DNA of 64,000 bases from Paraspadella gotoi (lineage: Eukaryota; Animalia; Chaetognatha): contig CM119265.1 of the NCBI GenBank assembly GCA_051294375.1, forward strand, positions 13,260,124 to 13,324,123, written 5' to 3'. The number at the start of each line of letters is the position of its first letter. Positions within the stretch are counted from its first letter, which is position 1. The position numbers were made by a program, and so were the translations under genes. The notes under the pieces are model-generated. The model had not been told where the DNA came from. It made no database searches and saw only the letters and a program-made list of their open reading frames with translations. Below, piece after piece: positions 23,901 to 26,900 of the stretch.

Positions 23901-26900
23901 ATAATGATACATAATAAATAAACATATAAAGACAAAAAAGAGCGCGACGTTAGTATTTCTTTATGTTCCGTAAACGCAACTAATTAACAACTTACTCCCT
24001 AAATTACTACTTCAGCGACGAATCTTCGAAGCATCAAAACAAAAACAAAACAAAACAAAACAAATGGGGGCGTGTCTCTTTTGCTCGGGTCTCCTCCTCC
24101 TCCTCGAATCCATGTCCGCCTCCAACGCGAGATTCAACGCCAGCGACGATGGAATCAGCGCCGGCGACGCCGCATTCCTCGCCGACCTCAACGCCACTCG
24201 TCGCGTCAGGGTCATGACCTACAACATCAAGCAAATACCCAACTACTTTGGGCTCCACGCCTGGGATCAGAGCAAACGCCTCGAGAAGCTCGTCGCCGCC
24301 TTCGAGGATTTGCCCGACGATGCCTTGCCCGACGCCATCGTGTTTAACGAGTTATTATCGGGCGCGGCGTTGACCGCCATCCGAAGTAAGATGGCCGACG
24401 ATTACCCGTTTCAGACGAACGTCATCGGCAAGGATTGCGCCACGGCGGAAGGGTGGACGACGTTGACGGGGAATTGTCAGGTCGGAGTTTGTTGTTAGAA
24501 AATCTGTTATAATGTGAGATGTGAGGATGAATCTGGCAGTTCAGCGAAAGACGCAAACCCGATACAAGTCGGTTCTGGTGGTCTGACTGACATGAACTGA
24601 AACCCTGGCAGTACGCGTTTTGAACAAAACACTAAATCCCCGTCGTAATCGAAATTACCCGCAGGTGCTGCTTCCTCGCGGCGGAGTGAGCATCATTTCC
24701 CGCCACCCGATCGAAGAGGCGCACGGACTCGTCTATACCGACAAAGTCAAAGGGACTTGGGATCAACTCTGCAACAAGGGGGCGGTCTTGGCTAAGATTC
24801 GCCTCGGAGGTGGCGGTGAGATTTAAAGTCTGCAATCAAATCACAAAGAGGCAAAAGCAAAAACCAAAACATAAACAAACAAAACCAATCGCAGAAAACG
24901 GAAACGGCGTGGACGGACCCGTCCTCTGGCTCCTCGGCACGCACTTGCAGTCCGACGAAGGGGGCGCGGACTCAAGTTCCACGCGCGAGCGCCAAGCGGC
25001 GGAAATGACGTCTTGGGTCGAGTCCGGTCAATACATGGGCCTTTTCGACACGAGCCCAGATGACCTCTTCATCCTCGCCGGCGACCTCAACGTGGAATGG
25101 CGCGCCAAACGGCACCAGTTCGAAGAAATGAAACGTCTCACCAAATCGCGCGTCAACTACACGTGGGACGGATTTGGCTCTTTCTCCGCCAAGACCAACT
25201 GGCTGGCCAAGGCCGTCCACTACAGGTGAAGGCCGCCTTCCATCAAAGATTTTTTTAAAAATTGTTTAAATGATTGATAAAAAATATCTGGAATTTAAAA
25301 AAAATTGTATATTAGAAACTATACAGCCTCCGGATCAAAGGCAGGTTTATGAACCGAAAAATAAACATAATAATATAAGGAATAAACATATAAGGATAAA
25401 CAATTAAACATAATATCATTCGCCCCTGAAATAACTCCTACTATTTCAAGAACTTAAATGGTCGATGCACGATGTCTGCTCAAAGACAAAAGATTTTATC
25501 GAATCGGTTCTCCCCCCTCCAATCCGCAGCTATTCGGAAGCTCTTGACTACGACGACACGCTGGACTACATCGGTTACAGGGAAGACTTCAAACATCCCG
25601 TCTACGCCCCGACCCAGCGAGTGATTCCCCTCAAGTCCGCAACATCGTGGTACTGGAGCTACATGCGCGGCTGGTGGGATCTTCCCTCAAGGGGTCGGAC
25701 TTGGTATAACGGATACTACGATGACATTTCGGATCACTATCCAGTCGTGGCCGATTTCTATTACGACGTCTAAGGGTCTCCCTCTCCCTCTCTCTCTCTC
25801 TCTCTCTCTCTCTCTCTCTCTCTCTCTCTCTCTCTCTCGTATTGAAGATGATTGATCGAGAATTTAGTTCGAAAAAGAAAAACCATTTCAAATTCTAGAA
25901 AGATGAATTTTAACTTCAATTTTTGAGTTTGTTTAATGCTTCCAAATCAATGTTCTTGATTATTTATACGTTTTTTTTTCCAGTGCTTAATTTTTCTCAC
26001 TTTGATTTTGGCTCGTTTTTTTTACGGTCATCTATGACAACGCTTTGAAAAAAATTGAAATAAAAATATCAATTAACCTTAAGTTTTGGCACTCGGTTGA
26101 TTGTTTTTAAGGGTCGCAAAACCCGCAGCACTCTCAGCGATTTGATGGTGTTAAGATTCTTTCCCGCTCCGCTTGACGTATCCCTGAGAGGAAAGGAAAT
26201 CAAGGTTGATGAATTATGTAAACGAAGGGGTTAACGAACTTGAAACGGTGATGCAAACGGTGACAACTGATTCAATTTTCAAAACCTTTCATCGCCCTTT
26301 GTGAAAAGCTGCTATGAGAATTGTAAAAAAAGCACGAGTTGCCTCAAACGACATACATACATCGAAGCCTTTGATCGAAGCGTAAAAAAATAGTGATTTT
26401 CGGTCACCGAGTGAAAGTTTTTTTTTTGTCGACCAGAGGCTTTGAATGTACCCGAAATACAATTAGGAGTCATGGGATAATGTAACATTGAGGTAGATTC
26501 AGTACATTTCATTGAAACAAATAATTTCAACTCCATTAGACATCATAAAGTATAATCTTCATGCTTTAAGATTTTGTGTCACCTCATCAGCAGCTCATGC
26601 AATAGTGTCGTGATAATTTCAACATAAATTTTATGAAATTTTTTTTTTCATTTAAAAACTCAACTCACTGGATACTGTTTATAGATTAATCTATATAGAG
26701 CAATTATCGGTCACGTGGTGTTTATTTTGTGAAAAGGAACGTTTTATCAATGAAGATGTTAGCAATACCCTATCATTTTAATGTTAGCTTTCAGGTTTTA
26801 TGAAATAATTTATTTTCGTTCAAAGATATGACTAAAGAAATTTCTCATGCACAATACAGTTATTGCTAAGAGCATATAGAACGCACTTTCACTCCATTAC

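Follow-up and report, generated by a model that had tools for sequence, protein, structure and literature searches.

A spliced, bacterial-type sphingomyelinase C gene nested antisense in a Cav2 intron of the chaetognath Paraspadella gotoi and its probable bacterial ancestry

The locus described here lies in the genome of Paraspadella gotoi (Chaetognatha; assembly GCA_051294375.1, contig CM119265.1, positions 13,260,124 to 13,324,123, forward strand). The whole stretch of 64,000 nt that was analysed is referred to as the window, and all coordinates are window positions. A Cav2 channel gene (the host gene) runs on the minus strand, and one of its introns contains, on the plus strand, a gene with a 380-aa product, referred to below as the nested gene and the nested protein. 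The nested gene is real, spliced and expressed, and lies antisense within the Cav2 intron, with the following features:

22333–22515, minus strand: host Cav2 exon with IIIS5, beginning AVFDCVV, 3′ end approximate (Ion_trans)
22516–26077, minus strand: host Cav2 intron, 3,562 nt, GT..AG, with the domain III S4 and S5 exons on either side (Ion_trans exons)
23179–23461, plus strand: 5′ exon, probably untranslated; the loose end of the X9 contig equals 23429–23458; donor CAG/GTACAT
23462–24015, plus strand: first intron, 554 nt, GT..AG (X9 contig)
24016–24480, plus strand: coding exon 1, ATG at 24064; hydrophobic leader, N54, E96 and the Cys125/Cys138 pair (TIGR03395, E 8e-6)
24481–24664, plus strand: intron, 184 nt, phase 0 (absent from the X9 contig)
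24665–24815, plus strand: coding exon 2; P144-R145 replacing the edge-site Glu-Asp, and the D173..K178 loop (alignment)
24816–24894, plus strand: intron, 79 nt, phase 1 (absent from the X9 contig)
24895–25225, plus strand: coding exon 3; H207, D254, N256 and the sequon N278 (alignment)
25226–25529, plus strand: intron, 304 nt, phase 2 (absent from the X9 contig)
25530–25773, plus strand: coding exon 4; D313, Trp/Tyr-rich hairpin region, D369-H370 and stop (alignment)
26059–26064, plus strand: candidate poly(A) signal, the sole AATAAA/ATTAAA from the stop to the host exon (motif scan)
26078–26185, minus strand: host Cav2 exon with IIIS4, 5′ end approximate (Ion_trans)

An earlier note on this DNA had described a four-exon gene for 380 amino acids within a 3.56-kb Cav2 intron; its coordinates, antisense orientation and reading frames were confirmed, but a fifth, 5′ exon had been missed. 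The coding sequence (24064–24480, 24665–24815, 24895–25225 and 25530–25773; 1,143 nt, i.e. 380 aa plus stop) is stop-free in every exon and split codon, and its introns of 184, 79 and 304 nt are each GT..AG, in phases 0, 1 and 2. All three proposed splice junctions were recovered in a 1,507-nt contig from run X9, which skips exactly these lengths and carries no foreign letters; X9 counts as RNA by an automatic guess, no run being recorded as RNA, and the contigs carry neither strand nor level. In the three DNA runs X2, X5 and X6, the unspliced form was found and the joints were absent. As the X9 contig extends upstream and matches 23429–23458, a fifth exon at the 5′ end and a 554-nt first intron could be added, the start of this exon being approximate since the 280 upstream contig letters were taken as one exon. 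It holds an in-frame ATG at 23381 in weak context, from which 43 extra residues would precede the hydrophobic leader. Coding exons 1–3 each match TIGR03395 in the correct order (E 4e-6 to 2e-4) and all four coding exons match full-length relatives in tblastn searches, and thus the gene is not a product of chance. No Rfam match was obtained within 22000–27000.

Contamination or mis-assembly, by which bacterial or protist DNA would have been placed in the Cav2 intron, is very improbable. Codon use does differ from that of the host gene, as GC3 is 0.75 in the nested gene versus 0.52 in 541 sampled Cav2 codons, and the contig comparison covers 23600–25770, a stretch that lies between the flanking Cav2 exons and reaches neither of them. 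The four spliceosomal introns and their exact splicing in RNA argue against this explanation, as does the near-identical sequence in runs from three studies under one organism code, the gene being present in the DNA of two studies and as spliced RNA from the third. Moreover, nine runs contain 0.52–0.97 of the words of 22200–26300, both host exons included. (CT)n tracts of the host type flank the nested gene on either side, which likewise speaks for its residence in this genome.

The host gene is assigned to Cav2 by sequence comparison: its first exon scores 103–109 bits against human Cav2.1–2.3 versus 41–51 bits against Cav1, and an IQ domain follows downstream. Large introns often harbour nested antisense genes, whose functions are mostly unrelated to those of their hosts. 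The link to a presynaptic channel gene proposed in the earlier note stands as physical nesting, but nothing ties the function of the nested gene to the channel. An enzyme acting on the animal's own membranes, releasing ceramide in nerve or muscle cells, with nesting in Cav2 imposing shared or mutually exclusive transcription, would fit a transcript that occupies most of the host intron, with its sole poly(A) hexamer 13 nt away from the host exon. This reading is nevertheless improbable: the arrangement comes from a single locus in one genome, the 64-kb window contains one copy of the gene, and no such SMase–Cav2 link was found in the open-access literature. The Cav2 linkage is probably incidental.

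To place the nested protein in a family, we used P0001, a relative with 59% identity over the whole length, as a stand-in for fold prediction (model pLDDT 89.6). Foldseek matched the model to bacterial sphingomyelinases (SMases) with E 1.6e-28, and structural comparison (VIA) gave a top Z of 38.4. Comparison with bacterial SMase C of the DNase I-like fold, namely the enzymes of B. cereus (2DDR/2UYR), Listeria ivanovii (SmcL, 1ZWX) and Streptomyces griseocarneus (7CNE) and the S. aureus beta-toxin (3I5V), which are grouped in TIGR03395, gave Z 33–38 with an rmsd of 1.9–2.7 Å over 264–291 aligned residues. In contrast, Z was 27.2 for human nSMase1 (SMPD2, 8J2F) and 24.4 for nSMase2 (SMPD3, 5UVG), in agreement with the earlier proposal of a bacterial SMase C type rather than an SMPD2/SMPD3 type. 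All significant matches of P0001 in a PDB sequence search were bacterial SMases (seven of the nine matches at E ≤ 10) and none was human, and an ESM Atlas query with the same protein returned bacterial SMase/endonuclease clusters. The human enzymes share the superfamily fold, the core and the Asp-x4-Lys loop, the latter according to excerpts of PMC10682184, but have only 18–20% identity and no sequence match at E ≤ 10. Furthermore, they are membrane-anchored, by helices of a type absent from the nested protein, and SMPD2 lacks the prokaryotic hairpin.

The SMase motifs quoted in the earlier note are all present, and the catalytic core is kept in 9/9 residues. Alignment through P0001 to the PDB maps N54, E96, D173, H207, D254, N256, D313, D369 and H370 onto N16, E53, D126, H151, D195, N197, D253, D295 and H296 of B. 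cereus SMase, residues whose roles are described in excerpts of PMC9710629 and PMC10682184. Hydropathy is highest at the N-terminus (19-aa mean 1.65), as the note had also stated, and because the best value past residue 30 is only 1.28, a C-terminal transmembrane helix is not expected; the protein ends 10 residues past the catalytic His. The leader peaks at residues 4–14, is short and has no basic n-region. With the bacterial SMase C enzymes, the nested protein thus has in common the central metal and catalytic residues, a soluble form without a transmembrane helix and a C-terminal beta-hairpin, for which strands at 341–345 and 349–353 are predicted in the P0001 model, in a segment that aligns to nested exon 4 at 68%.

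The differences from these enzymes are equally clear. Identity is only 27–31%, the nested gene has introns, and the nested protein has an extra N-terminal Cys pair and would fall below the TIGR03395 cut-off of 248.2 bits; its relatives P0001 and P0127 reach 125 and 86 bits and a staphylococcal enzyme 383 bits, and single nested exons give 20–26 bits each. The edge metal site of B. cereus SMase (F55, N57, E99 and D100) is replaced by L98, G100, P144 and R145, and the hairpin tip reads Pro-Ser-Arg in the nested protein and Pro-Val-Met in P0001 instead of the Trp-Phe (W284, F285) of B. cereus, the Trp residues of the nested protein being placed on the strands. As judged from sequence, the nested protein is therefore not a close relative of beta-toxin, with P0001 at about half the cut-off and both edge site and Trp-Phe tip absent. 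In place of the Bacillus, Staphylococcus and Leptospira enzymes put forward earlier, the closest relatives are a subfamily of marine Gammaproteobacteria together with unnamed, transcript-like proteins.

These differences also bear on a possible function as a venom component or defensive cytolysin which, like staphylococcal beta-toxin, would convert outer-leaflet sphingomyelin into ceramide and lyse prey or predator cells. Fold and catalytic core are common to both, and the 36 residues preceding the Asp-His motif include 10 W/Y/F. In the nemertean Cephalothrix cf. simula, the secreted "sphingomyelinase C" ORF|062113 appears among the putative toxins of the mucus (PMC12846013), and bacterial genes have entered centipede venom and carry introns, according to excerpts of PMC7864903. 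In contrast, mutation of the edge site and of the Trp-Phe tip lowers erythrocyte binding and lysis in the excerpted work of PMC9710629, and both are absent here, which weakens the "haemolysin-like" label of the earlier note; the same excerpts report that edge-site residues also vary among staphylococci, some enzymes lacking them. A cytolysin is thus an unlikely reading. By its description, the nemertean enzyme would resemble the nested protein in being an animal, secreted protein (356 aa) with bacterial SMase C P17627 as best match (E 2e-18), and the word "horizontal" is absent from the main text of PMC12846013.

The closest named relatives among the matches listed are marine Gammaproteobacteria with 35–41% identity, from Spartinivicinus, Zooshikella, Photobacterium, Pseudoalteromonas, Salinivibrio, Shewanella and Montanilutibacter, and of 80 prokaryote loci retained, 44 belong to Pseudoalteromonas, Photobacterium, Salinivibrio, Lysobacteraceae and kin (34–40%). 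This "sphingomyelin phosphodiesterase" subfamily, whose bacterial names are automatic, shares with the nested protein Arg-Gly-Gly, the Cys pair and a long aromatic C-terminal segment, features that we defined from the alignment, and its named members tested also fall below the TIGR03395 cut-off (151–182 bits). Unlike them, the nested gene bears introns, and its product has a longer N-terminus and longer loops. A search of the open-access literature, assays included, found no published activity for any subfamily member. The neighbours of the bacterial relatives (36/69 ORFs, 12/13 loci) formed no conserved operon and included one lipase and one alpha/beta hydrolase.

In every tree, all of which were built without SMPD2/3 sequences, the nested protein fell into a clade of unnamed, transcript-like proteins from short contigs. 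Most of its full-length members start, by eye, with a hydrophobic leader, and from the short single-gene contigs and these leaders we infer that it may be an animal clade. The 36-row tree places the nested protein in a 13-row clade (96/96), itself part of a 26-row clade (97/91) that contains these bacteria and excludes the diatoms; the 36 rows were chosen after trees had been seen, with 19 of 55 rows dropped. Nesting among bacteria was found in all best trees, the mixture-model tree being in its quick form, and a single bacterial sister group was not recovered. Arg at the D100 column occurs in 12/13 near bacterial rows, 6/8 rows of the nested-protein clade and 0/7 diatom rows, and the second Cys in 13/13, 7/8 and 0/7, respectively.

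These data have to be weighed against an older eukaryote resident, acquired early or passed between eukaryotes (e.g. from algal food) and mostly lost in animals, without direct transfer from bacteria to animals. A named diatom "Sphingomyelinase C" (Seminavis robusta, P0305) belongs to the wider subfamily with the same core, further unnamed eukaryote-like branches exist, and approximately unbiased (AU) tests on a 41-row set rejected neither joining with the diatoms (p 0.105) nor the grouping of every eukaryote-like row into one clade (p 0.095), nor a position beside classical SMases (p 0.068). However, the best trees always part the diatoms from the nested-protein clade; the diatom protein has Asn instead of Arg and lacks the Cys pair that the clade shares with gammaproteobacteria, and the diatom branch is leader-less by eye. 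In the 36-row set, a single clade of all eukaryote-like rows was rejected (p 0.0012), while the nested-protein clade with diatoms was not (p 0.10), so that one of five alternatives was rejected overall and a shared origin with diatoms is only partly excluded by the tree tests. Named members from animals, fungi or plants were absent from the 120 of 313 matches listed, from 23 profile matches and from 22 clusters, the word-based searches being incomplete and most matches unnamed. Taken together, an older resident is rather unlikely, and ancestry through transfer from bacteria, as opposed to inheritance from early eukaryotes, is likely; the bacterial origin proposed in the earlier note thus stands as the best reading. 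The occurrence of the subfamily in diatoms and unnamed eukaryote-like lineages indicates an old transfer that is not confined to this genome. Metagenome scans gave no DNA of the nested-protein clade: the first yielded 0 of 242 stretches, and the second, which covered 20 of 64 parts, yielded 48 of 601, from 45 loci, with 35% as the best identity.

Overall, we favour, with a probability of roughly 55%, a spliced animal gene that came from marine bacteria long ago and encodes a secreted, metal-dependent phospholipase C that acts on membrane lipids in gut or mucus. Activity as a lipid phospholipase C is highly probable by analogy. Judging from B. cereus SMase and human SMPD2, E96 with N54, D254 and N256 would hold Mg2+/Mn2+, H370 with D313 behind it would activate water and the D173–K178 loop would steady the phosphate, so that sphingomyelin or a similar lipid (ceramide phosphoethanolamine, lyso-PAF) may be cleaved into ceramide or alkyl-glycerol and the phospho-headgroup. 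The hydrophobic leader, the Cys125–Cys138 pair and the sequons point to the secretory pathway, making secretion a reasonably probable prediction, and the Trp/Tyr-rich C-terminal hairpin is predicted to dock on membranes, with R145 occupying the edge-metal position. For a role in gut or mucus, the odds are about even. The history may have begun with a single transfer out of the marine gammaproteobacterial subfamily, followed by the gain of introns and duplication into several secreted paralogues, one of which would have settled in the Cav2 intron with no functional link to the channel. It is doubtful, though conceivable, that these proteins form an undescribed secreted animal phospholipase C family, derived from one ancient marine gammaproteobacterial transfer, with three or more sub-families among marine invertebrates that have been little sequenced and a beta-toxin-like role in mucus or venom, to which the nemertean mucus enzyme may belong.

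Animals are thought to use the membrane-anchored SMPD2/SMPD3 and acid sphingomyelinase, and sphingomyelinase D occurs in spider venoms. A soluble bacterial-type SMase C encoded by a spliced animal gene would represent another route to ceramide and an SMase C counterpart to the spider enzyme. The surprise is limited, since both nested genes and transfers followed by intron gain have ample precedent; no description of the nested gene, its clade or an SMase C transfer into animals was found in the open-access literature. The results also point to a subfamily of putative enzymes that extends over marine bacteria, diatoms and further eukaryote-like records without names, for the study of which the nested gene offers one intron-resolved, expressed locus.

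Searches with single exons yielded no EEP match in Pfam, and exon 4 alone had no solved relative in the PDB. Matches of exon 1 to PPR-repeat entries in the PDB were summed weak repeats and do not reflect homology. The N278 sequon is also found in 3 of the 13 near bacterial rows, which weakens it as a eukaryote marker.

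The sphingomyelinase C (SMase C) gene and its host intron, as read from open reading frames and splice sites, comprise the following features:

24064-24480, + strand, SMase C coding exon 1
24665-24815, + strand, SMase C coding exon 2
24895-25225, + strand, SMase C coding exon 3
25530-25773, + strand, SMase C coding exon 4
22516-26077, - strand, host Cav2 intron of 3,562 nt, carrying the whole + strand SMase C coding part

The four exons encode 380 codons plus a stop, are separated by introns of 184, 79 and 304 nt (GT..AG; phases 0, 1, 2) and contain no stop codon, split codons included. 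The host intron is flanked by two Ion_trans exons, and the first exon of the host gene scored 103-109 bits against human Cav2.1-2.3 versus 41-51 bits against Cav1. Exon map and host gene agree with the earlier note, which placed a four-exon, 380-aa open reading frame wholly inside a ~3.56-kb intron of a minus-strand Cav2 gene. A tblastn search within the window returned one copy. GC3 of the SMase C exons ranged from 0.67 to 0.80 and GC of the introns from 32 to 45%, while the difference in GC3 between SMase C (0.75) and Cav2 (0.52 in 541 sampled codons; codon-use r 0.17) neither supports nor excludes amelioration. The proposed physical tie to a presynaptic channel gene holds for position, but the nesting is probably incidental, and local signalling tied to Cav2, for which this position would speak, appears quite improbable.

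Nine of the 11 runs listed, from three studies with one organism code, contain 0.52-0.97 of the words of 22200-26300, and one sample may be that from which the window derives. Comparison over 23600-25770 with run contigs, from which strand, level and tissue are not readable, revealed unspliced contigs with no joint in the DNA runs X2, X5 and X6. Run X9, classed as RNA by guess only, gave a single 1,507-nt contig (depth 25, no variant letters) skipping exactly the 184-, 79- and 304-nt introns. Even with the class of X9 guessed, these joints show a spliced molecule, bearing out the three predicted junctions. The gene belongs to the animal and is spliced; an artefact is highly improbable. As the last 30 of 280 additional upstream letters in the X9 contig match 23429-23458, a fifth, 5' exon ends at 23461 and is followed by a 554-nt intron before the coding part. 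An ATG in this exon (23381-23383, +) has a weak context and is in frame with the main ATG once spliced; its use could place 43 basic-rich residues ahead of the hydrophobic leader. The unnamed database relatives P0001 and P0127 begin at the position equivalent to ATG 24064. Near the inferred 5' end, 23190-23266 (+) contains a pair of CCAAT boxes and an element resembling TATATAA, and the X9 contig seems to start upstream of these. At its other end the contig stops 36 letters past 25770, about at a (CT)n tract. Downstream of the stop there is a single poly(A) hexamer (region 26059-26095), 13 nt short of the host exon; the transcript may therefore end in antisense overlap with the Cav2 donor site. 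In X2, X5 and X6, short pieces of the last intron (25239-25313) align to a second contig in either orientation and may be what is left of a small repeat. The differences listed among the four runs were one substitution and one 1-nt insertion (24526, 23717), both intronic and both in X5.

Coding exons 1-3 match the bacterial SMase C/beta-toxin model TIGR03395 weakly, and a search with exon 1 led to two full-length relatives, P0001 and P0002. The window protein (X at junctions) shares 59% of its residues with P0001 along its whole length; identity is 53% for P0127, 44-46% for both P0003 and P0005, and 35-41% for the named proteins of Gammaproteobacteria. A sequence search with P0001 as stand-in yielded nine matches at E<=10, of which seven were bacterial SMase C entries (E 2e-24 to 9e-21) and none was a human enzyme. 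Its model (pLDDT 89.6, 31 sequences) matched bacterial SMases in Foldseek at E 1e-28 to 3e-23, compared with 4e-17 for human nSMase1 and 5e-13 for nSMase2, the Z scores being 33-38, 27.2 and 24.4, respectively. Given this closeness of P0001 to the bacterial enzymes, and as no transmembrane helix was found in the window protein outside its N-terminus, the latter is, judged by sequence and model, of the bacterial soluble type and, as first proposed, unlike membrane-anchored SMPD2/SMPD3.

All nine core residues mapped by alignment are kept (N54, E96, D173, H207, D254, N256, D313, D369, H370), in keeping with the claimed complete set of metal and catalytic residues. As in the homologous B. cereus SMase and human SMPD2 (PMC10682184 for the latter), Mg2+ would be held by E96 with N54, D254 and N256, water would be activated by H370 with the support of D313, and the phosphate would be stabilised by the D173-K178 loop. 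Ceramide and phosphocholine would result, or corresponding products if the substrate is an invertebrate sphingolipid or lyso-PAF. According to PMC9710629, mutation of the edge metal site of bacterial SMases (F55, N57, E99, D100) lowers red-cell binding and lysis, as does mutation of the Trp-Phe hairpin tip. Staphylococci, too, differ from one another at the edge site, so that activity need not be lost with it. The window protein departs from the beta-toxin type at both places: the edge-site positions read L98, G100, P144 and R145, and the hairpin, which the P0001 model places at 341-353, bears its Trp on the strands and Pro-Ser-Arg at the tip. Against a TIGR03395 cut-off of 248 bits, P0001 scored 125, named gammaproteobacterial members 151-182 and a staphylococcal enzyme 383. 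With the core kept, the edge site and tip changed and the stand-in below the cut-off, the protein probably acts as a sphingomyelinase C, yet it falls outside the beta-toxin equivalog. The suggested activity is thus likely, whereas haemolysis should not be assumed.

Several features point towards export: residues 4-14 are hydrophobic, P0001 and P0127 have similar leaders and other clade members longer ones, and there are a Cys pair and three sequons. Against this, the window leader is short, and a start at ATG 23381 could put 43 residues in front of it. Our overall account, that the protein is secreted and acts on lipids as a phospholipase C in gut or mucus, is given a probability of about 0.55; origin and function alternatives overlap, and their weights are not exclusive. 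In the accessible parts of the open-access literature, this gene and its clade were not found described, nor was any SMase C transfer into animals. Closest there is a study of nemertean mucus, which lists a 'sphingomyelinase C' of 356 aa (best match P17627, E 2e-18; PMC12846013) that may be kin to the window protein. Centipedes illustrate how genes of bacterial origin can acquire introns and become venom components (PMC7864903); with the edge site and Trp-Phe tip absent here, a venom or defensive cytolysin seems doubtful.

In a protein search with P0001, 313 of 2,731 candidates passed, and every organism name among the best 120 of these was bacterial, the nearest being Spartinivicinus, Montanilutibacter, Photobacterium, Pseudoalteromonas and Shewanella. 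An exhaustive search of 50% representatives gave 689 matches (150 listed, none with a name). Among 22 clusters looked up, two bore organism names (Zooshikella, Microcoleus). A profile from 15 eukaryote-like rows returned 23 matches among 2,989 candidates, the one named eukaryote being the diatom Seminavis robusta; it missed several known members, which limits searches of this kind. Relatives are encoded in 135 of 158 prokaryote stretches; 80 loci were kept, 44 at 34-40% (nearly all gammaproteobacterial) and 36 at 27-30% (nearly all actinomycete), and no conserved gene neighbourhood was found among the 36 of 69 flanking ORFs, from 12 of 13 loci, that were scanned. The relative P0006 carries an ~80-residue Cys-rich insert, with no Pfam match, in the loop that corresponds to the site of the phase-1 intron in the window gene. 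Within the subfamily, the diatom protein P0305 and its kin make up a branch of their own that lacks leader and Cys and probably goes back to a second, separate acquisition.

All trees, none of which included SMPD2/3, pair the window protein with P0001 within a starred clade whose unnamed proteins come from single-gene contigs 1-2.4 kb long (9/68, 8/55 and 7/41 rows in three data sets), which two further such clades join at 80-90 support. Contig size, leaders and low-complexity inserts suggest that these rows are animal transcripts. In a 36-row set, obtained from the 55 rows by removing 19 (long branches among them) chosen after the trees were seen, the three clades unite in one of 13 rows (96/96), itself part of a 26-row clade (97/91) with the marine bacteria and without diatoms. 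AU tests on this set rejected a single clade of all eukaryote-like rows (p 0.0012) but not the window clade with diatoms (p 0.10); on the 41-row set all three alternatives tested survived (p 0.105, 0.095, 0.068). Arg at the D100 column (12/13 near bacterial, 6/8 window-clade, 0/7 diatom rows) and the second Cys (13/13, 7/8 and 0/7) agree with the best trees. An older eukaryotic resident, which the surviving diatom grouping would accommodate and the rejected all-eukaryote clade disfavours, is rather unlikely. For the horizontal acquisition claimed earlier, bacterial ancestry is well supported, but donor, date and route are not. The gene is best described as a domesticated, expressed, bacterial-type sphingomyelinase C from a marine subfamily, with the toxin reading unproven.

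Elsewhere in the window, degenerate TTAGGG-like repeats upstream of Cav2 (~48780-48900, -) form an interstitial telomere-like tract, which hints faintly that the host is not an arthropod. The last Cav2 exon (4881-5993, -) is very GC-rich, with Pro/Gly/His/Gln runs, and ends in ...ETEWC, which resembles the Cav2 PDZ-binding tail. Other Gly/Pro-rich frames lie at 7029-7358, 8678-9133 and 9349-9720, and a 25-N run occupies 52904-52928, far from the SMase C gene.
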